44,224 bases of DNA from Fidelibacterota bacterium (GCA_043822705.1 JBDRBK010000154.1:1-44224), one strand, 5' to 3'; positions 4,451 to 43,150 are shown, counted from the stretch's first letter. Numbers and translations: made by a program. The notes: generated by a model from the letters alone, not told the origin.

Positions 4451-4501
4451 ATTCAGTGGCGTTTTGATTTCAATCCCAAATTGGTTAAAACAGGATTTCA
4501 A

Positions 4502-10097: not shown

Positions 10098-10718
10098 ATG
10101 GTAAACTACTTCTTGCAGGGTGGTGCGTTTATGTACCCTATTTTAGGGTTTTTCATCTTCGGGTTGGCTTTTTCGTTTGAAAGGCTCTACTCCCTGACGA
10201 TGTCATCCATCAATGCAAAGAAATTCCTGAAAGAAATCAATGAAGCCCTGGATGCCGGCGACGTGGACAGTGCGGTTGAGCTATGCAATAAAACCCGCGG
10301 CCCGGTGGCGGAAATTTTCCATGCCGGCCTGACCCGGATCAATCGCGGCATTGTCGAGGTGGAAAAGGCTATTCAGAACGCCGGTACGCTGGAAATGGCC
10401 TTCCTGGAAAAAAATATGATCTGGCTGAATGCTACGATCACTGTCGCTCCGATGCTTGGGTTTACCGGAACGGTTGTCGGTATGATCAAAGCCTTCGACG
10501 ATATTAAAAAGATGAATGATATTTCACCGGCGGTTGTAGCCGACGGTATTTCCATTGCCCTGTTGACGACCGCTTTCGGTCTGATCGTTGCCATTATTAT
10601 TCAGTTCTTCCAGAATTTCTTTGTATCGCGCATCGACAAACTGATCCTCGATATGGAAGAAAATTCGGTTCTGCTGATTGATCGCCTGGTCGAACTCGAG
10701 AGCAAAAAGAAACAGTAA
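10098..10718 (+). CDS. exbB: MotA/TolQ/ExbB proton channel protein
   Basis: APMLGFTGTVVGMIKAF and GISIALLTTAFGLIVAI; adjacent to exbD and tonB. Confidence 0.92.
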   Translation: MVNYFLQGGAFMYPILGFFIFGLAFSFERLYSLTMSSINAKKFLKEINEALDAGDVDSAVELCNKTRGPVAEIFHAGLTRINRGIVEVEKAIQNAGTLEMAFLEKNMIWLNATITVAPMLGFTGTVVGMIKAFDDIKKMNDISPAVVADGISIALLTTAFGLIVAIIIQFFQNFFVSRIDKLILDMEENSVLLIDRLVELESKKKQ

Positions 10719-10723
10719 TCGCC

Positions 10724-11116
10724 ATGCTGAAAAAACGCAGGTTCAAGGGGGGCGATATTCCGACGTCATCGATGTCGGATATTGCTTTCCTGTTACTGGT
10801 TTTCTTTCTGGTCACGACCACGATCGATATGGATAAGGGTCTTGGCATTGTGTTGCCGGCCGAGGGCGAGACCTTCGAAATGCATCAGAGCAATATTCTG
10901 AACTGCCTGATCAACTCGACCGGGGGTGTACTGCTAGGCGATGAACCGGTCAACGTGAAGGACGTCAGTCGCCTGGTCCGGGAAAAAATGGCCCTGAATG
11001 AAAATCTGATCGTGTCGGTAAAGTCCCATGAGCGGACCAGTTATGAGGATTATATCCGCGTCATCGACCAGTTAAAAATCGCTCAGGCCAAAATATCAAT
11101 TGCTGAGACCGGCTGA
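10724..11116 (+). CDS. exbD: Biopolymer transport protein ExbD/TolR
   Basis: SMSDIAFLLLVFFLVTT transmembrane helix with the conserved Asp. Confidence 0.92.
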   Translation: MLKKRRFKGGDIPTSSMSDIAFLLLVFFLVTTTIDMDKGLGIVLPAEGETFEMHQSNILNCLINSTGGVLLGDEPVNVKDVSRLVREKMALNENLIVSVKSHERTSYEDYIRVIDQLKIAQAKISIAETG

Positions 11117-11526
11117 TGAAACTGAAAAAGAAAACCAAGGTTTCCAGCGAGATACCAACCTCGTCGATGCCAGATATTATCTTCATGCTGCTGATTTTCT
11201 TCATGGTGACCACCGTGCTGCGGACCTATTCCGGTCTACCGATCGAGCTGCCGCGAGCCAAGAAAATCTCCGGACTCAAATCGAAGCGTCAGACCGCCCA
11301 CATCTGGGTTTCAAAAGACGGCCTGATTTCCATCGAAGATAAAATTCACAAGGTCGATGACGTCCGCTGGACGATCTACAATAAAAGAGCGGCCGAGTAC
11401 AACCTGACGGTTTCCCTGAAAGCCGATAAGGATTCGCGGATGGGCCTGATTGTGGCGGTCCAAAATGAATTGCGCAAAGCCGACGCTTTGAAATTAAATT
11501 ACTCAACCTTAACGGCAGTGGATTAG
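11116..11526 (+). CDS. exbD: Biopolymer transport protein ExbD/TolR (second copy)
   Basis: SMPDIIFMLLIFFMVTT and LKADKDSRMG; translational coupling (TGATG). Confidence 0.92.
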   Translation: MKLKKKTKVSSEIPTSSMPDIIFMLLIFFMVTTVLRTYSGLPIELPRAKKISGLKSKRQTAHIWVSKDGLISIEDKIHKVDDVRWTIYNKRAAEYNLTVSLKADKDSRMGLIVAVQNELRKADALKLNYSTLTAVD

Positions 11527-11529
11527 ACC

Positions 11530-12174
11530 GTGTTTTTACGTGAAGAAAACTCCGCTTCTCTGAAATACCGCTATCCGATAACAATCCGCGTCACTACCTT
11601 ATTAGGGGTGGCCGTAATTACATTCGGATTTTTGATTTTTCCGCGTTTCATTCATAAAGCGGTATTGAAAAATGTCGATATTCAAATAATCGAGTTTGAG
11701 AAAATCCCCGAAACACAGCAGATTGACCGACCACCGCCACCGGCCCGGCCCTCGATTCCGATCGCATCGGAGAGCGAGGATATCGCTGAAGATGTGGTGA
11801 TGGAAGAATTCTCGTTCGATGAATTCGAAGCCTGGGATGCTCCACCGCCACCGCCGGAAGGACCGCGGGTTAAATTTATACCCTACGACGATCCACCGGA
11901 ACCGATCGGTGGTTATGGCGCCATTCAGGCGAATGTCAAGTATCCGGAAATCGCCCAGGAAGCCGGGATCGAAGGAACTGTCATCGTGCAGGCTTTCATC
12001 GATAAAAGCGGCAAGGTTACCGATACGGTAATCCTCCGCGGGATTCCCAACACCGGTCTGGACGAAGCCGCCATGGACGCCATCCGCCAAACCCGCTTCA
12101 AACCCGCCAAACAGCGCGACCGGGCTGTCGGCGTCTGGATTTCCATACCAGTCAATTTTAAACTGCGAAATTAG
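11530..12174 (+). CDS. tonB: Energy transducer TonB
   Basis: N-terminal TM helix, Pro-rich linker, TonB_C domain (YPEIAQEAGIEGTV...FKPAKQ...IPVNFKL). Confidence 0.9.
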   Translation: MFLREENSASLKYRYPITIRVTTLLGVAVITFGFLIFPRFIHKAVLKNVDIQIIEFEKIPETQQIDRPPPPARPSIPIASESEDIAEDVVMEEFSFDEFEAWDAPPPPPEGPRVKFIPYDDPPEPIGGYGAIQANVKYPEIAQEAGIEGTVIVQAFIDKSGKVTDTVILRGIPNTGLDEAAMDAIRQTRFKPAKQRDRAVGVWISIPVNFKLRN

Positions 12175-12181
12175 TTGCGAT

Positions 12182-12226
12182 TGTGTTTACCCATGGTGTA
12201 TCATAGATATGCCATGGGTAAACACA
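12182..12226. promoter_or_regulatory. Long inverted repeat/hairpin between the tonB copies
   Basis: TGTGTTTACCCATGG (12182-12196) pairs perfectly with CCATGGGTAAACACA (12212-12226) and extends 6 bp further with two G-U pairs. Confidence 0.75.
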
Positions 12227-12860
12227 TAAATAACACAATCTCAGTCAAATCTCAGTATCTGCTCACTACCGCCTCTCGCTGCTGTTCAGCATTCTTATTC
12301 TCACTGTCGCTTTCGTCGCGGCACCACACTTCACAATTCAGTCCAATTTCTTTACTGCAAAACCGGTGATAAACGATCCAATCGTATTTGAATCCCCACC
12401 GCCTACGAAACAGCTGGAAAGAACCAGGCCGGAATTGCCACCGGTTTTCACAGTGTCTGAAAATCCTGATTTAATCGACGATCTTCCGACCAATATTTTT
12501 GATCCGGAAATCTACGTGTCGTCGACCACTATCGAAGCACCGGTAGGACCGGCCCCCGATTTTGTCGCCTACGATCAGGCGCCGCAACTAATCGGGGGAA
12601 ACGCCGCTCTGGCCAGCGTGATCAAATATCCGCCCATCGCCCGTGAGGCCGGAATCGAAGGTGTCGTTACCGTCAAGATCTTCATCGATAAAACCGGAAA
12701 GGTAACCAAGGCCTACATACTAAAAAGCACTGTTCCCGATACCGGTCTTGATGAAGCTGCGCTGGCAGCGGTATACGCCACGAACTGGAAACCAGCCCGG
12801 CAGCGCGAGGAACCAGTGGGCGTCTGGTTGGCGATCCCGATTAATTTTGTGCTGAATTAA
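12214..12860 (+). pseudogene. tonB: Second TonB paralog with an apparent 1-nt frameshift near 12270 (pseudogene or assembly error)
   Basis: One frame gives MGKHINNTISVKSQYLLTT. The other frame continues RLSLLFSILILTVAFVAAPHF (TM helix) into TonB_C (YPPIAREAGIEGVV...IPINFVLN). The joined sequence is colinear with the upstream TonB. Confidence 0.8.
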
Positions 12861-24138: not shown

Positions 24139-25575
24139 TCATTTTTTAATTCCGAGACGCTCCAGCTTTTTATACAGACCGACCCGGCTAAGACCCAGTG
24201 CGCGGGCGGCACGGGAAATATTGCCACGGTACCGCTCGAGCGCGTTTTTGATCAGATCTTTTTCGAGGGCGCCTGTGGCAGACCTAAGATCGATATCCGC
24301 CTCAGTAAAAAATTTGCCATAATTCGCTTGCAGCGTTGCTTGATCCGTTGCAAGGTCCGGCAGGGCGGCAGCCAGAGACATCCCATCGTCGGTCATTACT
24401 ACTGAACGTTCGATCAGGTTTTCCAGTTCACGGATATTTCCGGGGTAATTGCGCTCGACCAGTTGCCGGAGCATTGCACCGCTCAGACCTTCGATCCGCC
24501 GGTTCATTTTTAAGGCATATTTGCGGATAAAATACCGGGCCAGCGGCGGTATATCTTCCCGGCGGTCACGCAGGGGCGGCAGATTTATCGGAAACACATT
24601 CAGCCGGTAATATAAATCCTCGCGGAATTTACCCTGTTTTACCGCCGCGGCCGGATCGCGGTTGGTAGCTGAAATTATACGCACATTCACCTTCAACGAC
24701 CGACCGCTGCCGACCGGTGTTATCTCCCCTTCCTGCAGAACCCGCAATAATCGTTGCTGAAAAGCCGGCGAAGTGTCGGCAATTTCATCCAGAAAGACCG
24801 TGCCGCCGTCAGCCAGTTCAAATAGACCTTTGCGGTCGCTGATGGCGTCGGTAAACGCGCCTTTGCAGTGACCGAACAGGATGCTTTCCAGCAGTGTATC
24901 CGGCAGGGCGGCACAATTCTGCGCCAGAAACGGCTGGGTGCTACGCGGACCATTATAATGGATTGCCTGGGCCACCAGTTCCTTGCCGGTTCCGGTCTCG
25001 CCGGTGAGTAATACTGTGGTGTCGGTCGGGAGAACCTTTTTCATCAGTTCGAATACTTTTTTAATGGCGGCACTCTCTCCGATAATATTATCAAAAGTGT
25101 AGTGCCGCTCCACCTCCTGGCGCAGCGACCGGTTTTCCTGCGCGAGACGCAGGTTGACCGTTTCCAACTCGCGGGACAGTCGCCGGTTATCCTGCAACAG
25201 CAAATACTTCTCCGCCGCCTGATTCAATATCAACAGCAACGCTGCCGGCTCCCAGGGTTTCTGGATATAATAATAAATCCGACCGTCATTGACCGCCTTG
25301 ACCAATGCTTCAATATCCGAATAACCAGTAATCATGATCCGCACGGCATCGGGCTGGATGGCGCGCGCCTTGTTGAAAAAATCCGCGCCATTCATTTCCG
25401 GCATGCGCTGGTCGGATAGGATAACCGCCATTTCCTGTTCCCGCAGAACCATCAGTGCGGCCGGTCCGCTCAGCGACAGGATTACTTCAAAATCGGATCG
25501 CAGCGCTCGTTGCAGGGAATTCAGCACCGGTTGCTCGTCATCGACAATTAATATTCGTGGTTTTTGCTCATTCAT
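24139..25575 (-). CDS. Sigma54-dependent response regulator (REC-AAA+-Fis HTH, NtrC/AtoC family)
   Basis: ILIVDDE, SDQRMP, GETGTGKE, GAFTDA loop, FLDEI, REDLYYRL, YPGNIREL, C-terminal HTH. Confidence 0.95.
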   Translation of the reverse strand: MNEQKPRILIVDDEQPVLNSLQRALRSDFEVILSLSGPAALMVLREQEMAVILSDQRMPEMNGADFFNKARAIQPDAVRIMITGYSDIEALVKAVNDGRIYYYIQKPWEPAALLLILNQAAEKYLLLQDNRRLSRELETVNLRLAQENRSLRQEVERHYTFDNIIGESAAIKKVFELMKKVLPTDTTVLLTGETGTGKELVAQAIHYNGPRSTQPFLAQNCAALPDTLLESILFGHCKGAFTDAISDRKGLFELADGGTVFLDEIADTSPAFQQRLLRVLQEGEITPVGSGRSLKVNVRIISATNRDPAAAVKQGKFREDLYYRLNVFPINLPPLRDRREDIPPLARYFIRKYALKMNRRIEGLSGAMLRQLVERNYPGNIRELENLIERSVVMTDDGMSLAAALPDLATDQATLQANYGKFFTEADIDLRSATGALEKDLIKNALERYRGNISRAARALGLSRVGLYKKLERLGIKK

Positions 25576-28500
25576 CGGTCTGGTTCCGCTGCTGTTTAAT
25601 CGGGATCGTAATTATAAAAACCGTACCCTTATCAGGGGTGCTGTCGACAGCGATGGAACCTCCATGGCGCTCGATGATCCCATAGCTGATACTCAGGCCT
25701 AGCCCGGTACCCTGGCCCACCGGCTTGGTGGTGAAAAAAGGATCGAATATTTTGCTGCGAACCTCCGTTGGAATGCCGCGGCCGTCGTCACGAATCGAAA
25801 TGACGAGGTCTGATTCCCGCCGACTGGTTTCAACCCAGATATTGCCCTGGCCAGCGATTGCCTGAATGGCATTCAACAGCAGATTCATAAATACCTGGTT
25901 CAAGTAACCGGGCAGACACTCAATTTCCGGCAGATCGCCATAATTTTTATGAACCGCTATCCGGCCTTTCAGTTCATTGCCCAGCAGCATCAGCGTAGCA
26001 TTCAAACCTTCATGGATATTGACAGCTTTGAACTCAGCCTCATCCAATCGGGAAAAATTGCGTAGATTCTCAACGATTTCCTTGACCCGCCGGCTGCCTT
26101 CGACGCTTTCATCGATCAACTGCCGGACATCGTTCTGATCGAACGCCAGCTGCCGCTCACCATTTGTCAAATCATTCAAATCGGCGATATATTTCCGCAG
26201 CTCGTGCATATTGGCATAAATGAAACCGATCGGATTATTCAGTTCGTGGGCCACGCCGGCCACCAGTTGGCCCAGGCTGGACATTTTCTCGCTCTGAATC
26301 AATTGCGCCTGGGTCTGTTGCAAATCCTGATATAATTCTTTCAGCACGCGGTTCTTTTCTTCCAGTTCGGCCACATATTTTTCACGGGTTCTGGCCTCGA
26401 TTATTTTCTCGGTCAGTTGGCGTGCTTCTTCGATATATCGATTATTCTCGATTGCCAGCGCCGCCTGGCCGGCCAGAATCGTTAAAACATCGCTGTCCTC
26501 GGATTGATAGTCCAGATCATTTATCCGCTTTCCCAGGATTAAAACAGCCAACAGAACACAGTTACGGCGAATCGGAATCAGCCGGGCGACGCGCCGTTCG
26601 GCCAGCCGCTCGAATCGTTGCGACAACCGCGGATCAATAACCGTCTCAGCCAATAATTGTCCGTGTTGCCGGTCGCTAAATTCAATTATTTCCAATCCGG
26701 CCGGAACCGTACCGGCCATGGCGCCGGGTCTGGTTTTACCTTCGTTCATGGCCAGCAAAATGCAGAATCTGGTAGCCAGGGTGGTCTGAATCGTATCCAC
26801 CAGCTCCCGATACAGATCAGCATTGTCGCGGATAAGAATCAATTGCTCGGAAAAGTGTCGTAAAACCTGGCGGTAGCCGTAGCGGCGAAGCGACAGTTGG
26901 CGGATTCGTTCCGAGAAGCCGGTAACAGCGCTGATTTCGATTAAAAGCAGCACCAGTTGCCCCCACAAAATCGGCCGCAGGCCATACTCCGGCAGCAATC
27001 CCAGCCAGAGCATCAGGAAAAACAGCGTGCCACCCACGAATCCCGCCGTTTGCCGGTTGCTCCAGCGATAACGCCGCACTGCCACGATTACAAATCCGCT
27101 CAGCACCAGGGCCAGCACCGTAACCAGCAGGAAATTATTCCAGAAATCAGGCTGCGCCACCAGCCGCCGCGCCGCCCGCAGACCGGTAAAGAACCAATGC
27201 GCCGGACCTGCGGATTCCGCAATGACAATCACCGTACCGGGATGAACATTATCCTTAATTATTTCCTTTCCGGACGGAAAAACAATCCGTACCCGGTATA
27301 TTCCATCATCGCTGATTCCCCCGAAATGGGCGACACCCTCGCCGATTGACAGATATCCCTGACCGCCACTGATTTCACGGTAGCCGCTGCTGTTCCAGGT
27401 TTCGCCGGGAAGTCTTTTTTCCAGCCAGATCTTTCCCCCGATCCCATCCCGGTTACTGTGGCTGCCCGATAAAGCGACACGGATCGAATGGCCCGCCGTA
27501 CCGGGATTGGAAAACAAGTTGGATAGCGTATCCTTGTTGGAAACGAACAGGTCCAAATCACCGTCATTGTCATAATCGGCTACAGCCGCACCCGTACTGT
27601 AATGTTCCAGATGCGAACCGGGCGGAATTTCCTGTTGGTAGACCGGTACAAATCCGGCGGCACCCTGATTGAGAAACAACAGGTTGGGACCAATATTGGC
27701 GAAAAACACATCCTGCCAGCCGTCATTATTCAGGTCGGCAATCAGGCCCGAGTAGCAGGGATAGCGGTTAATCAGGCCCGAGGCCGCAGTGATATCCGTA
27801 AACAACCATTTCCGGTTTTCCGCCATCAAATCATTGCGATACAGGCGCGTGGTCCGCTGGCGATCGGTAACCAGTAAGTCCAGATCGCCATCGTTGTCGA
27901 CATCAGCCATCCAGACACCGTTGCTGCGCAGCGGATCAGTCAGATGCGGCAGCGGCAGGTCGATCCGTTGAAATAATTTGCCACCCTGATTGCGATACAG
28001 AACATCCGGCGCGAACCAGTTGCAGACATACAGGTCGGGAAAACCGTCGCCGTCCAGATCGCCGAAAGAAGCGCCCTGACTGATTTGCTCATCAGCGATA
28101 CCATATTCCCGGGCTCGATTTTCAAACCGGCCCGGCCGGTTCTGGATAAATAAATGATTTTCGCCATGTTCATCGGTAACAAACAGATCCAGATCGCCAT
28201 CCCGATCGATATCGGACCAGATTGCGCAATTCCCGCTCAGCGGACGCTCGATTCCGGCTTCATCGGTTACTTCATCGTATGTCAGACGCCCCCCGCCCCG
28301 GAACAGCCGGGTGGTCCGATCCCATCCGGCAATCAGAACATCCTGTCGGCCATCGTTGTCAAAATCCACGACCGAAGCCCCCAACTCCAGGTTTTTACGT
28401 CCCCGGGAACTCAGGTTGCCGCCCAGACCGGAGCGGATCGTGCGGTCATAAAATGATTTGCCGGGACCACGATTAATAAAAAGGCGATTTAATTCGCGGA

Positions 28501-28744
28501 AACGGACGACATACAAATCCGGTAGCCCGTCGTTGGTCAGATCCTTGAAGGCAACGCCATAGGCGTCATCGATCTCCGGAATTATAGCAGATTCTTCGGT
28601 GGCCGCCGGGTTGAACATTGAGGCTGCCCAATCCACTGCGTCACCGGCCGACAGGGTTACTCCTGCCAAGAACAGGGTTAAAACCGCCAATCGATTAATA
28701 ATGATAGCTTTCCCGATGTTATCAGTAGCAGTCATCGCCGCCAT
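25568..28744 (-). CDS. Sensor histidine kinase with an extracytoplasmic FG-GAP/ASPIC-UnbV (CRTAC1-like) domain, 3 TM helices, GAF, HisKA and HATPase
   Basis: About seven D.DNDG..DL repeats, NRDGIG/GQGYLS ASPIC motifs, AGQAALAIEN (GAF end), GVAHELNNP, NLLLNA, DPFFTTK, GTGLGL. Confidence 0.9.
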   Translation of the reverse strand: MAAMTATDNIGKAIIINRLAVLTLFLAGVTLSAGDAVDWAASMFNPAATEESAIIPEIDDAYGVAFKDLTNDGLPDLYVVRFRELNRLFINRGPGKSFYDRTIRSGLGGNLSSRGRKNLELGASVVDFDNDGRQDVLIAGWDRTTRLFRGGGRLTYDEVTDEAGIERPLSGNCAIWSDIDRDGDLDLFVTDEHGENHLFIQNRPGRFENRAREYGIADEQISQGASFGDLDGDGFPDLYVCNWFAPDVLYRNQGGKLFQRIDLPLPHLTDPLRSNGVWMADVDNDGDLDLLVTDRQRTTRLYRNDLMAENRKWLFTDITAASGLINRYPCYSGLIADLNNDGWQDVFFANIGPNLLFLNQGAAGFVPVYQQEIPPGSHLEHYSTGAAVADYDNDGDLDLFVSNKDTLSNLFSNPGTAGHSIRVALSGSHSNRDGIGGKIWLEKRLPGETWNSSGYREISGGQGYLSIGEGVAHFGGISDDGIYRVRIVFPSGKEIIKDNVHPGTVIVIAESAGPAHWFFTGLRAARRLVAQPDFWNNFLLVTVLALVLSGFVIVAVRRYRWSNRQTAGFVGGTLFFLMLWLGLLPEYGLRPILWGQLVLLLIEISAVTGFSERIRQLSLRRYGYRQVLRHFSEQLILIRDNADLYRELVDTIQTTLATRFCILLAMNEGKTRPGAMAGTVPAGLEIIEFSDRQHGQLLAETVIDPRLSQRFERLAERRVARLIPIRRNCVLLAVLILGKRINDLDYQSEDSDVLTILAGQAALAIENNRYIEEARQLTEKIIEARTREKYVAELEEKNRVLKELYQDLQQTQAQLIQSEKMSSLGQLVAGVAHELNNPIGFIYANMHELRKYIADLNDLTNGERQLAFDQNDVRQLIDESVEGSRRVKEIVENLRNFSRLDEAEFKAVNIHEGLNATLMLLGNELKGRIAVHKNYGDLPEIECLPGYLNQVFMNLLLNAIQAIAGQGNIWVETSRRESDLVISIRDDGRGIPTEVRSKIFDPFFTTKPVGQGTGLGLSISYGIIERHGGSIAVDSTPDKGTVFIITIPIKQQRNQTDE

Positions 28745-32349: not shown

Positions 32350-33850
32350 ATGAAAGTAACCGGAATCGAATTAATTAATGTCCGCGGATTTAAACATCTG
32401 GAAAGAACTGAATTATCCACTACAATTAATGTGTTTGTGGGGCCAAATAACTCTGGTAAATCCACTATAATAAACTCCATATATATATTACAAAACCCTA
32501 ATGTGTTACAAAAAAGAGATATTACTATTGGTGAACAGAATGGTGAAATAAGATTGTATGTAAAAGGTAATTATCCACCAGTAATGAAACTTGATTCACA
32601 CTCTCAATATATATTAAAGATGTTGACCGGCGGCAATCTGCAAATTAATCGAGGTCAACTAGGTAATAGCAGTTTAGGCCAAATTCCACCAAAAGAACCT
32701 GAAAATCTAATATATCCATATCTCTCAAAAAGGAAAGTTGCAAGCTTTAATGATGCTATTAACGATAGTGTTGCAAATTCAATAACCGGGAATTTTTCAA
32801 ATTTATTTGCCAAAATTGATAGGCTTGTTACTCCAGAATTTCAACCAGCGAACAGTGAATATTTAAAAGCCTGTGATGACATTTTAAGTTTTAGAATTTC
32901 CTCAATTGCTAGTTCTAACGGCAAACAAGCTGTGTATTTTATAAGGAATAATGAAAATATTACTTTATCTGCGATGGGTGATGGAGTCGTAAATATTTTG
33001 GGCTTGATCACAGATTTATGCGTAGCTGAAAACAAAATATTTCTTATTGAAGAACCTGAAAATGATATTCATCCTAAGGCACTCAAATTGCTTTTAGATT
33101 TAATTATTGAAAAATCAGTTTTTTATTTCTACTCACTCCAATATTGTAATGAAGCATTTGGGCGCTTTTGAACAAACAAAAGTGTTTTCTGTTACCAACG
33201 AAAAATATGATGAAAAACGACCAGCATTGTTTCTATCGGAAATGAAAGAAATACAAAACAACCCGATCGAAAGAAGACAAATATTAGAAGATTTAGGATA
33301 CGATCTCTTTGATTTCGATTTATGGAAAGGTTGGTTGTTTTTAGAGGAATCATCTGCTGAAGTATTGATACGAGATTATTTTATTAAATGGTGCGTTCCA
33401 CAACTCAAGTACAAACTACGAACCTTTTCCGCTGGATCAAGCAGTAAGGTCAAATCAAAGTTCGAAGATTTTAATCGCTTATTTGTTTTTCTTCATCTTG
33501 AGCCAACATATAAAAACAAGGTTTGGGTCTATATTGATTCCGGTGAAATTGAAGATGATATTATTTTAAAAATGAAAGAAAAGTATTCCGCTTCAGGATG
33601 GTCGGTGGAACAATTTGGACAATTTTCTGAACATGATTTCGAAAAATATTACCCTGTAGTTTTTGAGCCCGAGGTAAAAAGAGTTTTATCTATTACGGAC
33701 AAGCAACAAAAGAAAAAAGAAAAGGCTATTCTCCTTGAAAGTGTAAAAGATTGGATAAACGAAAATCCCGCCGAAGCTGAAATTGAATTCAAAGAAAGTG
33801 CATCCGAAATAATTAAAATTCTAAAAATGATAAATAAAAAACTATCTTAG
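32350..33850 (+). pseudogene. AT-rich ABC/AAA-ATPase plus C-terminal TOPRIM-like protein (OLD-family ATP-dependent nuclease-like), split by a frameshift at about 33110-33125
   Basis: Walker A VGPNNSGKST, signature AMGDG and Walker B LIEEPENDIHP lie in ORF 32350-33171. The H-loop QFFISTHS and acidic LFLEESSAE/VYIDS lie in the overlapping frame 33107-33850. Confidence 0.75.
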
Positions 33851-35382: not shown

Positions 35383-35409
35383 AAAAAAGCCCCCGTAGGC
35401 CGGAGGCTT
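35383..35409 (-). terminator. Intrinsic terminator closing the motor-like operon
   Basis: Minus strand AAGCCTCCG-GCCTA-CGGGGGCTT followed by further Ts. Confidence 0.8.
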
Positions 35410-35433
35410 ATTGGCTAATTTTAATGCTCGGCG

Positions 35434-36363
35434 TTATTCAACCATCTCGCTGCCGCCGGCCAGATCTTCCAGTTTATACTCGCCGGCTTTTTCCATCTGG
35501 CGAGCCGCCTGGACGATCGTTTTGCGGGCCTTGTCGATCTCACGTTTGGCCACCGCGCCTTCGACCGGTTCGAACATGGCCTGTTTTTTCTGCGGCAGGC
35601 TTTCCAGAACATGATTGACGATATCCTCGTCCATTCCTTTCATGGCCATGGCGATCGTGTCCAGCTCGACCGAGTTCATCAGGTCGCGTAACAGTCCATC
35701 GGGGAAAATTTCAAAAATATCCTCAAAGGTCAGATAGTGTTTTTTCACCGCCCGCGCCAGATCGGGATCTTCGTTGGTGATCGCTTCCAGATATTTCCGT
35801 TCGTCTTCCGGATCCATCTCGCCTAAAATATCGGCAATATCTTTGCCGCCACCGCGGGAGAAATTCACCGTCCGCGGCAGGAAATGCGACTTATCCTCCA
35901 GGTCGCGGGCCACATCGACAACGCCTTCCAGAGGAATATCGACCAGGTTACCCATATCGATCAGGACCCGGCCTTTGGTCTCGGCGTCCAGGCGGCCCAG
36001 CACCAGCATGCGGCGGGACTGCGGCAATTGCGCGATGGCGATTGCGATCACGCGCGGCGATTCCGACACCAGCAGGGCGACCACCTGTTCGTCGGTAAGC
36101 GGGTCCATGAAACCGAAGGGGCGTTTGGGTTCGTCACCGGCTTCCTGGAATTTTTCGCTGATAAAACTGAAATAAAATTCTTCGATTACCCGTTTTTTAA
36201 CGGTAAAGGACACCGATCCAAGCTCGCGAATGGTGGCCCTTACCCGGCGCAGATCGGTCTGGGAAATCCCCTTGATCAGGGTCATCGCCAGACTTTCACC
36301 TAAAACTGAAAACAGGATGGCGACTTTCTGCAGTCCGGATAACCGGTTATAATCTGTGATCAT
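35434..36363 (-). CDS. fliG: FliG-like rotor protein (N, M and C domains; divergent)
   Basis: LSGLQKVAILFSVLGE (FliG_N), PFGF...ESPRVIAIAIAQL (FliG_M), GG hinge, LTFEDI, and C-terminal IDKARKTIVQAARQMEKAGE. Confidence 0.85.
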   Translation of the reverse strand: MITDYNRLSGLQKVAILFSVLGESLAMTLIKGISQTDLRRVRATIRELGSVSFTVKKRVIEEFYFSFISEKFQEAGDEPKRPFGFMDPLTDEQVVALLVSESPRVIAIAIAQLPQSRRMLVLGRLDAETKGRVLIDMGNLVDIPLEGVVDVARDLEDKSHFLPRTVNFSRGGGKDIADILGEMDPEDERKYLEAITNEDPDLARAVKKHYLTFEDIFEIFPDGLLRDLMNSVELDTIAMAMKGMDEDIVNHVLESLPQKKQAMFEPVEGAVAKREIDKARKTIVQAARQMEKAGEYKLEDLAGGSEMVE

Positions 36364-36375
36364 AGTCTGACCTTA

Positions 36376-37959
36376 TTATTTTTTCTTTTTCTTCCCTGTA
36401 TCCGGCGCTTCTACTTCCGCCGGTGGAGCTACCGGTTCCGGTGGCGGCGGCGGCGCTTCCTCGCCCATCCACTCGCGGACAATCCGCGTGGCCGTTTCCG
36501 GCTGGCCGACGCTCATCGAGACGACCGCCTTACGCATATCATTAATCTCGCTCTGCACGACACCCTGATCCGGTCCGCTGCTCACCTCAACCTCGACCGG
36601 CGGCAGTGTGACTGGTGTGATCGGTGTGATCGGTGCGGGTGGCGGTGGCGGAATTGTTACGGCCGGTTGCGGCATTGGTGCTTCAGCTAACTTGTCCTGA
36701 ATTCTTTTTTTTTTGCGCCGCGGCGGTGGCATCATCCAAGGGGGTGGCGGTGCATAACGCGGTTTGGAGCGATTGGTCATGACCAGTACGATCACCAGGG
36801 CCACCACCGCCAGCAGGGTGACAAACCCCATCAGGTAGAGCGGCAGATTATTCATGCCACCCTGGATTTTATCCAGTTCCGCCTGAACGCCTTCGAGTGT
36901 GGCAATTTTTTCGCTGATCTGGGCATCCAGTGCCGAACGCTCGGTCTCGACCTGCTGAACCCGGGACTGGGCGGCCTGAATTTCAGCGTCGGGGGTCGTA
37001 GGCGCTTCCATTTGACTGCGCAGGGTCTGAATTTCATTATTCAGTTGAATCAGCCGTAGTGAATCGCGCTGCAGAATATCACGGCGTTGCTGCTCGTAGG
37101 CACGGGCGCGGGCCGCCGTTTCCAGCTTGTCCAGTTCGGTCTGAAAATAACTGCGTTCCTGGTCCCGGCGCTGGACTTCGGCCTGTTTATACTGTTCCAG
37201 TTCCTGGCGCCAATCGGCTTCGGCGGCGGCACTCTCGACTACCCGCTGTTTTTCGATGGCGTCAACTTTGTCGGCAATGCTCTTTAAAAGAATCGCTTCG
37301 GCGGAACGCTGGTCGCGCCGCTCTTTGAAGGAGGCCGTCATAATGCTCAGGGCGTCACCGCGGGCCCGGTTGTAGCGCGCGGCTACCATTACAATCTGGC
37401 GAATGTTCTCGACCAGTTCCGGGGCAGCACCTTCCTGCAGAATCAGGCTGATATCCATTTTGCGGATCCGGGCGACCGAAAGCCGCTTGTCGGTCAAGAC
37501 CCGCGATACGATCTGGTCGCCACCCTGTGAAGAGGTGGTTTCCGCGACTATTTTTTCCGTCGCTACCACTTCCGGTTCGTCGTCGGACCCACTCATCTCG
37601 AATTCAAAACCGGGAATCGGCAAATAACTGTCGGTGTTGCGGCCGGTCTCCAGTTTCTTGCTGCCCGCCGCAACGGCACTGGTCAATTCGTCCAGCTCTC
37701 CGGCGCGACCGGCCTCGGTACTTGGAGCTACCGTGATTTGTTCCTGCACCTCGCTGGAAAGCTCCAGATCGACACTGACATCGATGACGTATTTCTGTTG
37801 ATCGATAATTTTGGATAATGCTTCCGTAATCTTCTTACGAATATCATTTTCCAGCATCAGTTTCTGGGTCAGATAACTTGTTTCCTGACCGCTCACCAGA
37901 TTAGATAACAGGGCAACGGTCGCTAATATTGTTATTTTCGCTGACAACCGTTTAATCAT
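36376..37959 (-). CDS. Truncated FliF-like M-ring protein (RBM3/S-ring domain, coiled coil, TM, Pro-rich linker, FliG-binding tail)
   Basis: LENDIRKKITEALSKII...VSVDL and IRKMDISLIL...IRQIV..A.RYNRARGDALSI...F match the split FliF C-terminal ring domain. The C-terminal PETATRIVREWM matches the FliF tail. Confidence 0.75.
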   Translation of the reverse strand: MIKRLSAKITILATVALLSNLVSGQETSYLTQKLMLENDIRKKITEALSKIIDQQKYVIDVSVDLELSSEVQEQITVAPSTEAGRAGELDELTSAVAAGSKKLETGRNTDSYLPIPGFEFEMSGSDDEPEVVATEKIVAETTSSQGGDQIVSRVLTDKRLSVARIRKMDISLILQEGAAPELVENIRQIVMVAARYNRARGDALSIMTASFKERRDQRSAEAILLKSIADKVDAIEKQRVVESAAAEADWRQELEQYKQAEVQRRDQERSYFQTELDKLETAARARAYEQQRRDILQRDSLRLIQLNNEIQTLRSQMEAPTTPDAEIQAAQSRVQQVETERSALDAQISEKIATLEGVQAELDKIQGGMNNLPLYLMGFVTLLAVVALVIVLVMTNRSKPRYAPPPPWMMPPPRRKKKRIQDKLAEAPMPQPAVTIPPPPPAPITPITPVTLPPVEVEVSSGPDQGVVQSEINDMRKAVVSMSVGQPETATRIVREWMGEEAPPPPPEPVAPPAEVEAPDTGKKKKK

Positions 37960-38017
37960 AATAACTCCTTGTCATGAATAGAAATTTCTACACCGAACAT
38001 TGCTCTCTTGCTCCTTG

Positions 38018-38752
38018 TCAGTTGCCGGCTTTGAAGGTGATTTCCACCCGGCGATTGCGCGCCTTTTCAACTTCGGTGCGATTATAGCGTGGAATCATAT
38101 TTCTTGTCAAAACCCGGTCGGTGGGGCGATCGCGCGGCAGGAATTCCGCCAGTCCGACCGACTCCAGGCGGGTTGGATCGACACCCAATTCGATCAGTTT
38201 TCGGACTACTTTTGCCGCCCGCGCGGCAGACAGTTCCCAATTGCTTTCGTATTTTTCCTGAAACCGGAGTGGCAAGGGATCGCTGTCGGTGTGTCCTTCA
38301 ACGGCGATCGGAAACTTGTTGTTGGGGTCGTTGATCGTCGGTACGAATTTTGCCAGAATTCCGATGATGCCGGGCTGGAGTTCCGCCGAGCCGGAACTGA
38401 AGCTGATATCCGATGAAATGCCGATCGTCACACCTTTGGGGCTGGTGCTGATTTCCACGTTTTCCTGTAAATCTTTATTTTCCTTCACCATTTTTTTTAC
38501 GGCCGCCTTGACGTCCGCCAGGTTCATGGCCTTACCTTCCTTTGTTTTCTTGCCGACTTTCTTACCCATCGAGTCGGCCATTTCCTGTAGCTTGACCGGA
38601 TCAATCGTGGAAATTGCCGCCAGTAAAACAAAGAACGCCAGCAGCAGGGTCATCATGTCCGCAAAGGTGGCGAACCACCCCGGCAGCCCCTCTTCAACTT
38701 CCCGAGCGCCGCGGGCTTTGTATTTTTTTATTTCACTTGCTGTAGCTGCCAT
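38018..38752 (-). CDS. motB: Stator subunit MotB/PomB (TM with Asp, OmpA-like PG-binding domain)
   Basis: WFATFADMMTLLLAFFVLL, VEGHTD, SNWELSAARA, RNRRVEI. Confidence 0.93.
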   Translation of the reverse strand: MAATASEIKKYKARGAREVEEGLPGWFATFADMMTLLLAFFVLLAAISTIDPVKLQEMADSMGKKVGKKTKEGKAMNLADVKAAVKKMVKENKDLQENVEISTSPKGVTIGISSDISFSSGSAELQPGIIGILAKFVPTINDPNNKFPIAVEGHTDSDPLPLRFQEKYESNWELSAARAAKVVRKLIELGVDPTRLESVGLAEFLPRDRPTDRVLTRNMIPRYNRTEVEKARNRRVEITFKAGN

Positions 38753-38764
38753 TGCCGCCGATCG

Positions 38765-39550
38765 CTACTCCCGCTTCCATTCTTTAGGCGGGATAAATGA
38801 ATTTAATTTTTCGCGCACGATCAGGGGGTGTTTGCGCTGGTGGATCAGCCGGGCTGCTTCGATCAGCATCGACTGCAGTGAGCTGGTATGGGTGATCCGC
38901 TGCTGAAATTTCGCCGCCATCGGCAGGAAAAACAGGTTGGCGAATACAGCGCCGTAAAAAGTTGTAATCAATGCGGCCGACATACCAACGCCCAGCGCCT
39001 CGGTTCCGCCACCGCCTTCGCCGCCGAAACCGGCTAGCATGATCACCAGACCGATCAGCGTTCCGATCATACCCCAGGCCGGCGCCATTACGCCCATTGT
39101 TTTCAGCAGGTCGGCCTGACTTTTTTCACGGATTTCCCGGTACTCGATGCGGGTCTGTAAAATTTCCGTCATTTCTTCCAGGGAATAGCCATCGATTACC
39201 ATCTGGGCGCCGTCCCGGAAAAACGGATTCCTGATCGTCTCGAGCCCGGTTTCCAATTCCCGTACGCCTTTGCGGGCGATTTCGGAAACACGGACGGCTT
39301 CATCGACAAAGGGGGCCAGGCGGATCACACCGCCACGAAAAACCACGCTGATCGCCGTGGTCAGCTTGGCCAGATCGGGCATCGGAAAGGCCACCGATAA
39401 AGAAGCGATCATGCCGCCGAATACGATTAATAAGCTCGACATCGACACGAAGCCCATGATGCCGGCGCCGGCAGCCGTGGCGGCCACATAAATTCCACCA
39501 CCGATGGAACCAAGTCCGACGATCACTCCGATAATAGTTGCAATATCCAT
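38765..39550 (-). CDS. motA: Stator subunit MotA/PomA
   Basis: MDIATIIG, SLLIVFGG, ARKGVRELE, APAWGMIGTLIGLVIML, AALITTFYG..FANL.FLP.A.K. Confidence 0.93.
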   Translation of the reverse strand: MDIATIIGVIVGLGSIGGGIYVAATAAGAGIMGFVSMSSLLIVFGGMIASLSVAFPMPDLAKLTTAISVVFRGGVIRLAPFVDEAVRVSEIARKGVRELETGLETIRNPFFRDGAQMVIDGYSLEEMTEILQTRIEYREIREKSQADLLKTMGVMAPAWGMIGTLIGLVIMLAGFGGEGGGGTEALGVGMSAALITTFYGAVFANLFFLPMAAKFQQRITHTSSLQSMLIEAARLIHQRKHPLIVREKLNSFIPPKEWKRE

Positions 39551-39558
39551 ACTAAATC

Positions 39559-40935
39559 CTATTCATCAATGATACTGGTGGATTTCAGTCTGTTCTCGTG
39601 CAGTGCTTTCAGGATGTTGCGCACATCCTCGTATTCCGGATCCATTCGCAGGGCCAGGTTCCAGTTGATCGTGGCGCGTTGCACGTCCCCTAATTTATAG
39701 TAGATCGATCCGCGGCGGGCATAGGCCAAGGCCAGGTTGGGATTCAGTTCCAGGGCGGTTTCGACTTCCTGCAGAGCCTCCCGGTAGTCGCCGGCGTAAA
39801 AATAGCGCAGCGATCGGGACAGGTGCCGTAACGCCTCGTTCATGTTTTTTTCGATCACATTGCTGGAAAGTTTCAATGATTTCAGCGAATCTTCCAGATG
39901 CAGGCCGCGCTGTTCCATGGCCGACAACCGGACCATCAGGTTGCGCATCTCATTTTGTACCAGAGCCATGGAATCGCGCAGTGTCAGCACCGCGGCATCC
40001 GCCAGGGCCAGGGTCGAATCAACCTGTCCCGAAAGCGATTCATAGGGATCGGTTCCGGGCAGTTTCAATTTTCCGTTGATAGTTACCGGAGCACCGGTCT
40101 CGGTCACCGTTGGCGGCGTTTTCTGCCGGGCCCGTGGGACCGACATTTCCAGTCCGACGGTCACCCCGGGATGGCCGGCCCAGTAGGGTGTATCCCAATC
40201 CGGTAATTTTTCTATGTGGGTGAATCCTAGGTTCAGGCGATAATCCGAGGTAAGGGGGATGCGGAGTCCCACATTGATACCCGTTCCGTCGAATTCACCC
40301 ACAAGGTCCAAGCCCCCCCCCCGGCCCAGATAGGGGGTGTTAAGAACAAAACCGGCGAAGACGCCGGTGCGCGTTCCGGTGGCGGTGTCGGTTTCCACCG
40401 TATCAATCGTGGCCAGGCTGCCCGTACCGAAGCCCATATAAGTACTCATCCGGTACGAGCCGATATTCTTCTCGCTGCTGATAATACCGAAAAAAGAGAG
40501 TTTGTCGGGATCAAGCTGCAGACCACTGTCGTTCCCGGAATTCTGAAAAATTATATCCTGTAAACCGGCCGAGATGGAAATATCTTCGTAGGAATACAGC
40601 TTGAACTGCATGTGAAATCCGAATTCCACCGGAGCGGTGAAGGGCACGGTGCCGATCCGGCTGAGGGCAGTCGTGTCGGCCCCCTGCACGGAGCTGAAAC
40701 CCAGCAGAAAACTACGGCCCAGCTCAGCGTCGAAATAAACGCCCTTGGCCATATTCAGGTTGGTGAAATTGTGGATTTCGGTTCCGAATCCCGCCGTGAA
40801 CAGATTTTCGCTGCGCATCACCGTGCTGTAAGGAATTTTCATCATCGGGCCGGGCCGGGTGTAGGCCACCCGCGTACCGGCGATGGCATAACCGGTCAGC
40901 AACAGAACAAGGATTATTGACTGAGCTTTTTTCAT
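39559..40935 (-). CDS. Putative OM beta-barrel + coiled coil + C-terminal TPR protein
   Basis: Signal peptide, about 250 aa of amphipathic strands (e.g. EFDGTGINVGLRIPL...LNLGF), Pro/Thr linker, heptad region, TPRs (ALELNPNLALAYARRGSIYYKLG). Confidence 0.7.
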   Translation of the reverse strand: MKKAQSIILVLLLTGYAIAGTRVAYTRPGPMMKIPYSTVMRSENLFTAGFGTEIHNFTNLNMAKGVYFDAELGRSFLLGFSSVQGADTTALSRIGTVPFTAPVEFGFHMQFKLYSYEDISISAGLQDIIFQNSGNDSGLQLDPDKLSFFGIISSEKNIGSYRMSTYMGFGTGSLATIDTVETDTATGTRTGVFAGFVLNTPYLGRGGGLDLVGEFDGTGINVGLRIPLTSDYRLNLGFTHIEKLPDWDTPYWAGHPGVTVGLEMSVPRARQKTPPTVTETGAPVTINGKLKLPGTDPYESLSGQVDSTLALADAAVLTLRDSMALVQNEMRNLMVRLSAMEQRGLHLEDSLKSLKLSSNVIEKNMNEALRHLSRSLRYFYAGDYREALQEVETALELNPNLALAYARRGSIYYKLGDVQRATINWNLALRMDPEYEDVRNILKALHENRLKSTSIIDE

Positions 40936-41861
40936 GGTACCATTTCCGCTTTTTTAAGCTCCATTCGGGCCAGCTTGGCATATTCGCTGGCCGGGTGGTC
41001 GGACACCAGCTTCTCAAACCAGACCAGGGCCTGGTCTTCCCGCCCCAACTTGCGATATAACAGACCTTTCTGAATCAGGGCGTCGTCACGGCGTTCACTG
41101 TCGCCCAGAGCGATGACCCGGTCCAGAAGCACCAGGGCTTCGGTGTAATTAGTCAGGCGCAATTGTGAATCGGCCATCCAGTAGATCACATTGGCCTGGG
41201 TCCGCGGACTCACATCATCCAGCACTAGTTGCTGAAAATGCTCCAGGGTTTTGTTGAAATCTTCCCGTTGATAGGCAAAGACACCGGCCATATATTCGGA
41301 CTGGTCGAACTTCGGCACTGGCGGAGTGACAACCGGAGCAACCGGGGCCGGTTTTTGGGTGACGGCTTCCTGGGGTTGTTGCGGTGGCAGGTTCCGGGCG
41401 ATCGGTTCGGCCGGCGGTGGTGTTTCCTTAACTACCGGTTTTTCTGCCAGGACCGGTAGTTGCGAAACCGGGGCTGTATTCATCTCCGCCAGAATTTCGC
41501 GTAATTCCTCGTTCTCGCGACGCAGGCGATTCATCTCGGAATGGAATGATTTTTCCAGCGATGCGATCCGCAGATTGATGCGATCGAGGGTGCCCAACAT
41601 TTCCTTGGAAGTGGCCATATACACCGCGCCGCTCTTGATTTTATTGATCCGGAATTTTATATCGTCCGATGGCGCGGCCACCAGCCGGGAATACTGTTCG
41701 TTGCCGGTGACCGGCTCGATCACGATTCCCAGATCCAGAAAAAATATATCTGCCATGGATGTCTGCTCGGCGCTCTGGCCCGGCAGGACGACCAGACTAC
41801 AGGCAATGAAAAACAGTCCTACCAGCAGCCGGTTGGTGGCGGCCGGTGGTGACGGTTGCAT
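40932..41861 (-). CDS. Periplasmic coiled-coil/Pro-rich/TPR protein (CpoB/YbgF-like architecture)
   Basis: Signal peptide, coiled coil, Pro-rich linker, ANVIYWMADS, DDALIQKGL, LVSDHPASEYAKLA. Confidence 0.7.
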   Translation of the reverse strand: MQPSPPAATNRLLVGLFFIACSLVVLPGQSAEQTSMADIFFLDLGIVIEPVTGNEQYSRLVAAPSDDIKFRINKIKSGAVYMATSKEMLGTLDRINLRIASLEKSFHSEMNRLRRENEELREILAEMNTAPVSQLPVLAEKPVVKETPPPAEPIARNLPPQQPQEAVTQKPAPVAPVVTPPVPKFDQSEYMAGVFAYQREDFNKTLEHFQQLVLDDVSPRTQANVIYWMADSQLRLTNYTEALVLLDRVIALGDSERRDDALIQKGLLYRKLGREDQALVWFEKLVSDHPASEYAKLARMELKKAEMVP

Positions 41862-42985
41862 TATTCGTATTCCTCCCAGTCGATAACGTAGGAATAGCCG
41901 ATGAATGAACCGAATGAATGCGGCACATACAACTCGAAGCTCCCCACTGCACCCGGCAGCAGGGTGGCATCGGTAGTGATCCCGGAATCAAAAGTATGGA
42001 AGGCGCCCCGGATAAAAGTAGTCAGGGTCTTGGTTTCGCCGCTCCAGTTCTTGCGAAATACAAAGTCGACTTTGACAAAATCGGCCCGGCGGCCGCCGAT
42101 ATTCTTGATTTCGCCGGCGAATACAATATTGCCCTGCTTATCCTTGGTTTCGTTAATATTGCCGACCAGCACACAGTTAGCGGAATATTTCTTGCCGGCA
42201 TCGCGGTCGGCGGTACCAGCGGCGGTGTACTTGGGTTCGGCCAGTTTGGGCATCGGCGGCGGTGAATAGGAATCACGAATCTGCTCAGGCACATATTCCT
42301 GGGTTTCTTCCGAAACTACATTGTCGATAATACGAACAATCGTGCTGCGATCGATAACCAGATAACCCAGCAGCGTCTCGACTTTCAGGGTTTTTTCATC
42401 CTGGTACACGACTTTACCAAATACGGTACTGCCGTTTTTCAGAATTATTTCCTTGGAATAGATCGCCAGCGGGTTGACCCACATCTTGCTTTGAGCTTTC
42501 AGATTTTCCACCTCGGAATTGAGATGTTTAATCTCGGCCGCCATTTTCTTCAATTCAAAGCTGAGCTCGTTGATAATGTAATTCTGATCGGTCCCGCCGA
42601 CTGGTGTCGCACCGGTTGCCGGCACTTCGGCAGCGGTTACTTTCTGTGCCGCAACTTTGACAGCCAGGGTGATTTCCAGGTCCTTGATATTATCATTACC
42701 AACCGTGATGCGCTGATTGGCACTGCCCCGGCCGCCGCCATCAATCTTGATGGTATAGGCACCGGGCAGAACATCGTCGAACTCAAATTCTCCCCCTTTC
42801 CGGCGGCCTTTGCCGGTTTCGGCACGGCCGACCGCGGTCTCCTCGGCATTAAGCAGCAGGATTGGTGTTTCCTCTACTTTCTCACCTTTGGGATCGACCA
42901 CAACGCCGGAAATTGACACACCCTTAGCCCACAACACTGTGCTGAAAAGGGCGCACATGGCTGAATACAATAGGATTTTCTTCAT
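41861..42985 (-). CDS. Secreted protein: carboxypeptidase-regulatory-like domain, coiled coil, small beta domain, FxLYD-like C-terminal domain
   Basis: MKKILLY signal peptide, ISGVVVDPKGE...GEFEFDDVLPGAYTIKI, GEIKNIGGRRADFVKV...LLPGAVGSF. ATG at 42985. Confidence 0.7.
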   Translation of the reverse strand: MKKILLYSAMCALFSTVLWAKGVSISGVVVDPKGEKVEETPILLLNAEETAVGRAETGKGRRKGGEFEFDDVLPGAYTIKIDGGGRGSANQRITVGNDNIKDLEITLAVKVAAQKVTAAEVPATGATPVGGTDQNYIINELSFELKKMAAEIKHLNSEVENLKAQSKMWVNPLAIYSKEIILKNGSTVFGKVVYQDEKTLKVETLLGYLVIDRSTIVRIIDNVVSEETQEYVPEQIRDSYSPPPMPKLAEPKYTAAGTADRDAGKKYSANCVLVGNINETKDKQGNIVFAGEIKNIGGRRADFVKVDFVFRKNWSGETKTLTTFIRGAFHTFDSGITTDATLLPGAVGSFELYVPHSFGSFIGYSYVIDWEEYE

Positions 42986-43055
42986 AGTTTCCCCAGAAAC
43001 ATGATCATTTACCTCGGATTCGCAAGTCGTCGATGTTAGCGTACACCGACGAGCT

Positions 43056-43085
43056 AATATAACTGCGTGTAAAAACAAATGTCAA
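43056..43085 (-). promoter_or_regulatory. Sigma70-type promoter of the motor-like operon
   Basis: Minus strand TTGACA-N18-TATATT. Confidence 0.6.
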
Positions 43086-43092
43086 GAATTAA

Positions 43093-43117
43093 TCCGGGGT
43101 CTTTGCAAGACCCCGGA
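43093..43117 (-). terminator. Hairpin/likely terminator after the M32 peptidase
   Basis: TCCGGGGTCTT-TGC-AAGACCCCGGA, a perfect 11-bp stem. Confidence 0.65.
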
Positions 43118-43150
43118 CGACTATTTATACCTATAATTAAGGTTAAGCTA

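Follow-up and report, generated by a model that had tools for sequence, protein, structure and literature searches.

The presence of FliF, FliG and flagellar-type MotAB is read as a sign of flagella, in which the FliF MS-ring, the FliG ring and the MotA5B2/PomA5B2 stator form the core of the motor. The known ion-driven motors outside the flagellum (Ton, Tol, GldLM, Agl and Zorya) use other stator families, and we know of none with a FliG/FliF rotor. In Bacteroidota, GldLM/PorLM is an inner-membrane ion-driven motor of the 5:2 type with a long component that crosses the periplasm and acts on a complex in the outer membrane. SpoIIIAG (sporulation channel) and other ring proteins with a single ring-building motif (RBM) carry one RBM3-like ring-building domain with a collar-forming insert. 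Here, we analyzed a seven-gene operon in a 44,224-nucleotide stretch of DNA from a Fidelibacterota bacterium (GCA_043822705.1, JBDRBK010000154.1:1-44224), hereafter called the window. The operon encodes homologues of MotA, MotB, FliG and FliF, so that the flagellar motor core is its closest known system, and three further secreted proteins, here called g1, g2 and g3. It probably builds an undescribed ion-driven envelope machine. In the reading that we favor and consider reasonably likely, this machine is self-contained and independent of the flagellum, and is built on the flagellar torque-generating core, with a rotor-stator of MotAB, FliG and a small FliF (mini-FliF, or FliF') coupled via the periplasm to an outer-membrane complex.

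Seven tightly packed open reading frames (ORFs), all on the minus strand, occupy positions 35434-42985 (Table 1; ORF coordinates were computed). The initial annotation of this DNA had described seven co-oriented, tightly packed genes flanked by housekeeping genes, and the coordinates bear this out: g1 and g2 overlap by 1 nucleotide and g2 and g3 by 4 nucleotides, the gaps farther downstream are 8, 12, 58 and 12 nucleotides, and the flanks are a beta-eliminating lyase gene and an M32 carboxypeptidase gene, both housekeeping. It had also placed the operon between a promoter and a terminator. Both sites could be located, the promoter-like site upstream of g1 lying directly after a terminator-like hairpin (43118..43092) of the upstream M32 carboxypeptidase gene. 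However, promoter-like sites in the region (8) were not above those in shuffled sequences (6.1 ± 2.4), so the two sites are only plausible as operon boundaries. The perfect promoter-like site inside motB is a candidate internal promoter that could serve mini-fliF and fliG. In addition, one groundwater metatranscriptome run (X1) contained 0.08 of the sampled words, and 10 short contigs from it matched the region, with DNA carry-over being possible; eight of these contigs were 111-181 nucleotides long, four of the eight were identical to the window, and the contigs fell on every gene save fliG.

Table 1. Genes and putative signals of the operon (positions in the window)
Feature	Position	Strand	Description
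g1	41861-42985 (ORF 41861-43078; real start probably 42985, at MKKILLY)	-	secreted multi-domain protein
g2	40932-41861	-	periplasmic CpoB/YbgF-like coiled-coil/TPR protein
g3	39559-40935	-	predicted outer-membrane beta-barrel + long helix + TPR
motA	38765-39550	-	flagellar-type MotA, stator subunit A; PF01618
motB	38018-38752	-	MotB-type stator subunit B; plug + OmpA-like peptidoglycan-binding domain
mini-fliF (FliF')	36376-37959	-	RBM3-only FliF; PF08345
fliG	35434-36363	-	FliG paralogue with N, M and C domains
promoter-like site TTGACA-18-TATATT	43085..43056	-	11/12 consensus matches; upstream of g1
promoter-like site TTGACA-18-TATAAT	38110..38081	-	perfect, 12/12; inside motB 3' end, upstream of mini-fliF
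terminator-like hairpin + T run	35409..35387	-	9 pairs (6 G-C), then TTTTTGTTT; after fliG

The stator proteins of the operon were of the flagellar type. MotA matched the Pfam family MotA_ExbB (PF01618) with 93.6 bits, and its best PDB match was MotA of Clostridium sporogenes (8ucs/6ysf, E 1.6e-38). R93 and the channel prolines P157 and P210 were present in 89 of 89 family members, and E100 was present in 87 of 89. MotB matched both MotB_plug (PF13677, 62.3 bits) and OmpA (PF00691, 49.1 bits), and C. sporogenes MotB was the best solved relative (PDB 6ysf, E 4.6e-23); Asp32 and the peptidoglycan-binding residues N171, R178 and N-R-R 233-235 were kept in 90 of 90 family members. All three domains of FliG scored above their cut-offs (FliG_N, PF14842, 44.1 bits; FliG_M, PF14841, 38.8 bits; FliG_C, PF01706, 71.3 bits), and the protein matched Thermotoga maritima FliG (1lkv) with an E value of 3.6e-22. 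Its torque helix, LP[QK]KKQAM[YF]EPVEG..KR, keeps the charged residues K259 (88/92), E265 (87/92), E268 (84/92), K273 (86/92) and R274 (89/92). As described in the accessible part of PMC12505986, the known stator-rotor contacts pair MotA R/E with FliG R/D/D. The ion path and the torque-interface residues of the operon proteins are nearly invariant and, judged from these alignments, appear to be under purifying selection.

The operon FliG and MotA were distant from the flagellar proteins of the same genome, with 21.7% identity to the canonical FliG and about 34% identity to the flagellar MotA. The EHPQ(R) motif of FliG binds FliM. At this position the operon family kept the E in 90 of 92 members, had no conserved H (the commonest residues being E, T, D and S), and kept P in 63 and R in 59 of 92; FliG in the window reads ESPR, and the canonical FliG of the same genome keeps EHPQ. 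The FliM-binding motif of the operon FliG has decayed, which fits a rotor without a C-ring.

FliF' matched only YscJ_FliF_C in Pfam (PF08345, RBM3; 34.1 bits against a cut-off of 23.8), and the same scan gave no match to PF01514 (YscJ_FliF, RBM1/RBM2), which scores 181 bits in the canonical FliF encoded on contig C208. A profile of 15 FliF' sequences matched RBM3 of FliF 12dr (E 1.3e-4), and, as a weak second stretch of only 6.7 bits, the conserved C-terminal peptide aligned to the last 28 residues (552-579) of Vibrio FliF 8z5s. In the 15-sequence alignment, FliF' consists of a signal peptide, RBM3 with a variable short collar insert (invariant LPIPGF), a helical stalk, one transmembrane (TM) helix (~376-398), a Pro/Lys-rich linker, the conserved FliG-binding-like C-terminal peptide and a poly-Lys tail. 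Unlike flagellar FliF, it lacks RBM1 and RBM2, has a signal peptide in place of the first TM helix and carries a helical stalk of ~160 residues before its TM helix. Measured between the RBM3 end and the TM helix, this stalk has 148-205 residues (median 160.5, n = 80, these being the 80 of 105 FliF' sequences in which the motif pattern matched), and its length is kept while its sequence is poorly conserved. A longer stalk (196-203 residues) occurred in 7 of 10 loci without g2; these loci are close kin and the correlation is weak. The single RBM3-like domain with a collar insert resembles SpoIIIAG and its kin, which differ in topology and partners and have no motor. We also observed that the FliF' profile match contains one in-frame TAA in seven genomes of family f8 (G206, G282, G241, G205, G244, G278 and G245) and one TGA in three genomes of other families (G050, G064 and G072); these lineages may have a gene divided into two, a broken one or a recoded one.

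The flagellar motor core and the operon thus share the MotB Asp, the plug and the peptidoglycan-binding domain, the MotA prolines and R/E residues and the torque-helix charges of FliG; a C-terminal FliF peptide that may bind FliG is a putative further likeness. Unlike the flagellum, the operon has no type III export apparatus, rod, hook, filament or FliM/N, and its motor genes are co-transcribed with the gene of an outer-membrane barrel/TPR protein and with those of two other secreted proteins. All seven genes are intact, their order and the catalytic residues are conserved across classes, and the chromosomal position of the operon, between housekeeping genes and outside any defence island, is conserved too. 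We therefore give almost no credence to a decaying flagellum remnant without present function or to a Zorya-like defence system, although the gene set is reduced and MotB matches ZorB models (65.9 bits) via general MotB homology. PADLOC gave no ZorA match for MotA, no long ZorA tail, no ZorC/D and nothing for the other five proteins, and Zorya was rejected as a candidate.

The window belongs to a metagenome-assembled genome (MAG) of 218 contigs that is 93% complete with 6% contamination. The initial annotation had noted that the other flagellar genes are lacking, with the implicit premise of a non-flagellated organism. The absence is true of the window, but the premise is wrong for this genome, which has a complete flagellar gene set: flhA lies on contig C27 (885.9 bits), fliE-fliF-fliG-fliH-fliI-fliJ on C208, where the canonical FliF has both PF01514 and PF08345, and flgD-flgE-motA-motB-fliL-fliM-fliN-fliO on C28. 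A close relative with 1% contamination (G002) likewise has the operon and flagellar genes. The flagellar set on C208 and C28 carries separate copies of fliF, fliG and motAB, and the operon copies are thus not the only ones available to the flagellum. FliN-type matches with identical scores were seen on two short contigs (C27:10894-11106 and C28:7150-7362); these contigs probably overlap or are duplicated, which may account for part of the contamination estimate. Two more MotA/MotB pairs, again with plug and OmpA domains, lie at C100:2722-4351 and C153:9411-10927, one flanked by an HD-GYP-type response regulator and a PAS histidine kinase, the other near a Por_Secre_tail protein; the genome thus has four flagellar-type stator pairs in all.

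To compare the distribution of the two systems, we used 41 genomes of the same family and order, the window's genome included, and 301 genomes of the phylum that are at least 80% complete; both cross-tabulations were tallied by hand from tables of matches. Among the 41 genomes, mini-FliF was found in 35, FlhA above the cut-off in 8, and FliM/N (PF01052) in the same 8, so that 6 genomes had both systems, 29 the operon (mini-FliF) only, 2 the flagellar genes only and 4 neither; some of the operon-only genomes were 96-99% complete. Among the 301 genomes, the FliF' profile matched 211 and FlhA was found in 67 (both, 47; mini-FliF only, 164; FlhA only, 20; neither, 70). Whole families had the operon and no FlhA (f8, 25/29 vs 0/29; f17, 24/25 vs 0/25; f9, 8/8 vs 0/8), and others showed the reverse (operon vs FlhA: f16, 0/6 vs 5/6; f29, 1/6 vs 6/6). 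The FliF' profile gave one match in the window's genome and did not match its canonical FliF; cross-hits of the profile to flagellar FliF are therefore unlikely. Furthermore, three weak matches of the profile were checked and all lay in complete operons. These distributions amount to a phyletic double dissociation, and the operon is independent of flagella.

The same data bear on the idea that the operon is a flagellar accessory, an additional rotor/stator set serving an alternative or modified motor in flagellated members. All four motor proteins are flagellar homologues, and both systems occur together in 47 genomes of the phylum sample, the window's genome among them. However, FlhA and FliM/N are both absent from 29 of the 35 relatives that have the operon, and phylum-wide FlhA is absent from 164 of 211 mini-FliF genomes; FliF' has no RBM1/2 domains, which house the export gate; the FliM-binding motif of FliG is lost; and the flagellar operons carry their own motAB, fliF and fliG. 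This idea is largely refuted, and we regard it as very improbable. The claim of the initial annotation that the operon is not part of a flagellum stands: the operon works like a flagellum and does not belong to one.

The linkage of the envelope genes to the motor genes held in every related locus that we examined. The order g1-g3-motA-motB-fliF'-fliG was kept in 14 of 14 loci from 14 relatives, with g2 present in 11. In a set of 80 loci from genome records, some of them on the same contigs as the 14-locus set, 53 had seven genes, 8 had six (no g2) and 19 were truncated by a contig end that lies upstream of the match, and no change of order was seen; the named records were Marinimicrobia, Neomarinimicrobiota, Fidelibacterota or FCB-group, and the rest had generic titles ('bacterium', 'uncultured bacterium'). 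Likewise, all 12 loci taken from further families and classes within the phylum kept the order, g2 not being found in one. Identity to the window in other classes was 37-53% for MotA, 36-47% for FliG, 23-35% for FliF' and 21-32% for g2. At this long range the seven genes stayed together and the flanks were not seen. Of the two outcomes that the initial annotation had named as speaking against its reading (a flagellum dependent on the operon copies of fliF, fliG and motAB, or loose linkage of envelope and motor genes), neither was thus observed.

A g3 profile searched against 1.84 billion representatives gave 208 matches at E<=1e-30. Among the 150 matches listed, about 70 were single-stretch, about 30 of those near full length, and the remainder were generic multi-TPR proteins. 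Cluster look-ups and a word-index search named only Marinimicrobia or unclassified MAGs. The ESM Atlas held one g3-like cluster (score 0.98, 409 amino acids, 56 members) in which the commonest phylum is Candidatus Margulisiibacteriota; because of this cluster, the operon may not be confined to Fidelibacterota.

Long helices were found in all four periplasmic proteins of the operon (g1, g2, g3 and FliF'). g3 was the most conserved non-motor gene, with 35-48% identity in other classes of the phylum. Its AlphaFold2 model (71 sequences, mean pLDDT 77) predicted a signal peptide, a 13-strand beta-barrel (residues 44-267), a disordered linker, a 75-residue helix (307-381) and three tetratricopeptide repeats (TPRs; 384-457). 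In Foldseek searches, the barrel resembled OmpG, FapF, a KdgM-type porin (VhGalP) and a designed 12-strand barrel (TMt 0.64), with E values of 1.5e-4 to 3.7e-4, and the TPRs resembled consensus TPRs and Hsp90-peptide-binding TPRs. The N-terminal part of g3 is therefore predicted to be an outer-membrane beta-barrel, in agreement with the barrel that the initial annotation had proposed for one of the envelope genes.

For g1, the start was placed at MKKILLY because the matches of relatives begin at ORF residues 31-52 and two loci have a stop upstream. The protein matched CarboxypepD_reg in Pfam (36.5 bits) and a Lepto_7_Nterm-like model in NCBIfam (36.2 bits, under the cut-off of 43). Its AlphaFold2 model (66 sequences, mean pLDDT 83) predicted, in order, a signal peptide, a transthyretin/Ig-like domain, a helix of ~40 residues, an SH3-like domain and a C-terminal beta-sandwich that ends in an invariant W-E-x-Y tail (the C-terminus in the window reads FELYV). 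The N-terminal domain resembled transthyretin-like folds at Z 11-12, and matches to this domain filled the fold searches; it is not conserved outside the order, and the C-terminal two-thirds keep 41-57% identity in other classes of the phylum. The earlier label of g1 as an FxLYD protein found no support, since no FxLYD family matched in NCBIfam or Pfam scans at E<=0.01; NCBIfam presumably includes an FxLYD model. The same genome encodes, at C106:1027-1503, a protein distantly paralogous to g1 in its C-terminal half (25.7% identity over ~200 residues). A complex prediction of g3 (300-458) with g1 (125-374) gave a median ipSAE of 0.57 (runs 0.22, 0.63 and 0.57; best of 3 controls 0.00) and a partner pLDDT of 65-67. 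No more than 18 of 157 solved complexes passed at ipSAE <=0.60, the range in which both of the passing mismatches fell; the predicted contact had weak support and defined no interface, and it was not counted as evidence.

g2 has a signal peptide, a conserved mature N-terminal motif (IFFLDLGIVIEP), a coiled coil, a Pro-rich linker and a YbgF-like TPR part. TIGR02795 (tol_pal_ybgF) matched the TPR part only, with 41 bits against a cut-off of 90.1, in addition to TPR_6/TPR_2 matches, and the likeness of g2 to CpoB/YbgF lies in its architecture. A lipobox-like Cys was present in only 2 of 68 homologues. No g2 was found in 3 loci of the 14-locus set, in 8 of the 61 full-length loci or in 1 of the 12 loci from other families and classes.

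Another reading is a Tol-Pal-like energizer, in which ion flow through MotAB would pull or remodel the outer membrane via the FliF' stalk, g2 and g3 (for tethering, division constriction or vesicle control), with FliG and FliF' forming an organizing ring and not a free rotor. Both systems would have a peptidoglycan-anchored motor that acts across the periplasm toward the outer membrane; g2 shares the coiled coil and TPR of CpoB/YbgF; and the FliF' stalk, a long periplasmic helix, recalls TolA domain II. No TolB equivalog above the cut-off was found in the window's genome (best score 73 against 343 bits, PD40-repeat matches only), although this search is not decisive, as only 2 of 10 matching control genomes pass the cut-off. 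In contrast to Tol-Pal, however, the operon has a FliG/FliF ring and no TolA, TolB or Pal, and its stator is of the flagellar MotAB type, with plug and torque interface, and not TolQR-like. Moreover, the conserved torque-helix charges of FliG make sense only if MotA acts on FliG as in the motor, and g2 is dispensable in several lineages. We consider a Tol-Pal-like role unlikely.

Type IX secretion systems (T9SS) occur in the FCB group, to which the phylum belongs. A further possibility is that FliG, FliF' and MotAB form a substitute motor that replaces GldL/GldM (PorL/PorM) and drives SprA-dependent secretion or adhesin movement. The geometry would be similar, with an inner-membrane ion motor and a helical stalk that spans the periplasm, and GldLM/PorLM follows the same overall plan in the same superphylum. 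SprA (TIGR04189) was above its cut-off in 41 of 41 relatives, and the window's genome has a Por_Secre_tail cargo protein. GldM was found in 0 of 41 relatives, and GldM_1st and GldL were not found in the window's genome; these models matched nothing in the control genomes either and so have no positive control, and a divergent GldLM may have been missed. However, SprA is also present in the six relatives (families f12, f15 and f16) that lack the operon, which is therefore not obligatory for SprA. In addition, the operon is unlinked to any T9SS gene, no sequence relationship to GldM or GldL was found with these models, and its motor would act on a FliG/FliF ring and not itself be the periplasmic shaft. 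A type IX role is decidedly unlikely in our view. Both the Tol-Pal-like and the type IX proposal amount to the favored machine with its output specified.

What the data show is the gene content and structure of the operon, its linkage across the phylum, its independence from flagella and the conservation of ion-path and interface residues. In the envelope machine that we favor, MotA and MotB would form a MotA5B2-type ion-conducting stator anchored to peptidoglycan, which would turn a ring of the FliG paralogue carried by the C-terminal peptides that a FliF' ring exposes to the cytoplasm. The FliF' stalks, ~24 nm long at most if fully extended (0.15 nm per residue), would hold the RBM3 ring toward the outer membrane, where g3, with g1 and g2, would form a load or bearing. 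We infer from the above that the ring assembles without FliM/N, that it rotates, that the structure spans the periplasm and that it is coupled to g1-g3. As for the output, our best guess is the movement or energizing of something at the outer membrane or cell surface. A more specific form of this machine, which we put forward tentatively and consider somewhat unlikely, is a free-standing rotary nanomachine: the FliF' ring would be turned via FliG, its coiled-coil stalks would serve as a drive shaft, and the RBM3 ring would spin under the outer membrane and engage g3/g1 to move or secrete surface cargo. One possibility is that such a nanomachine replaces GldLM of type IX secretion/gliding in a phylum with universal SprA, in which the searches described above found no GldLM.

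Several points weigh against the envelope machine. All of its support is computational, the ring, rotation and output being deduced, and the sole link of FliF' to g1, g2 and g3 is neighborhood. Within the order, the flanking housekeeping genes are also often syntenic, so that synteny among close relatives is weaker evidence. The operon is also dispensable, since families f12, f15 and f16, which belong to this order, lack it. FliG rings normally need FliM/N for stable assembly. The equivalence to the E. coli residues R281/D288/D289/R297 was read from alignments to other species. The motor proteins scored below the NCBIfam equivalog cut-offs (FliG, TIGR00207, 111.4 vs 226.7; FliF, 34 vs 129.75; MotA, MotP model, 173.5 vs 394); they are divergent paralogues and not ordinary flagellar genes. 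Finally, the only cultured member of the phylum, Fidelibacter multiformis, is described as non-motile in the accessible part of its report (PMC11652737). The initial annotation knew of no described system of such composition. A literature search, with subscription journals outside its coverage, returned no description of the operon, and the accessible parts of PMC12505986 and PMC13277936 make no mention of the phylum.

Elsewhere in the window, a low-GC stretch on the plus strand (32350-33850; 36% vs ~54% elsewhere) lies between a pyruvate phosphate dikinase gene and a lyase gene. It contains an AAA_15/AAA_21 ATPase ORF that matches defence-type models (AriA, AbiLi, OLD and GajA), followed by an overlapping ORF of 247 amino acids without a family; the pair may be one frameshift-split gene or an inserted two-gene defence module. 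At positions 10098-12860 (plus strand), genes for an ExbB-type MotA_ExbB protein and for two TonB_C proteins make up a separate Ton-type energizer. Two very large secreted-type proteins (1253 and 958 amino acids) with FG-GAP, He_PIG/Ig and laminin-G domains are encoded at 740-7378 (minus strand), and an FG-GAP sensor histidine kinase and a sigma-54 response regulator at 24139-28744.

The operon means that Fidelibacterota (SAR406/Marinimicrobia), an abundant phylum of the ocean and of subsurface and groundwater, probably carries an envelope machine of its own, and that counts of flagellar genes over-call motility in SAR406 metagenomes. Genomes with both systems provide a natural control, as they hold two FliG/MotA pairs that must not cross-talk. 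The machine would also imply that rotor and stator can function as a module, and evolve, without the export apparatus and the axial structure, which bears on the evolutionary assembly of the flagellum. If true, the rotary nanomachine would mean that the flagellar rotor has, independently of swimming, a second use, and this in a bacterial group that is among the most abundant in the dark ocean.

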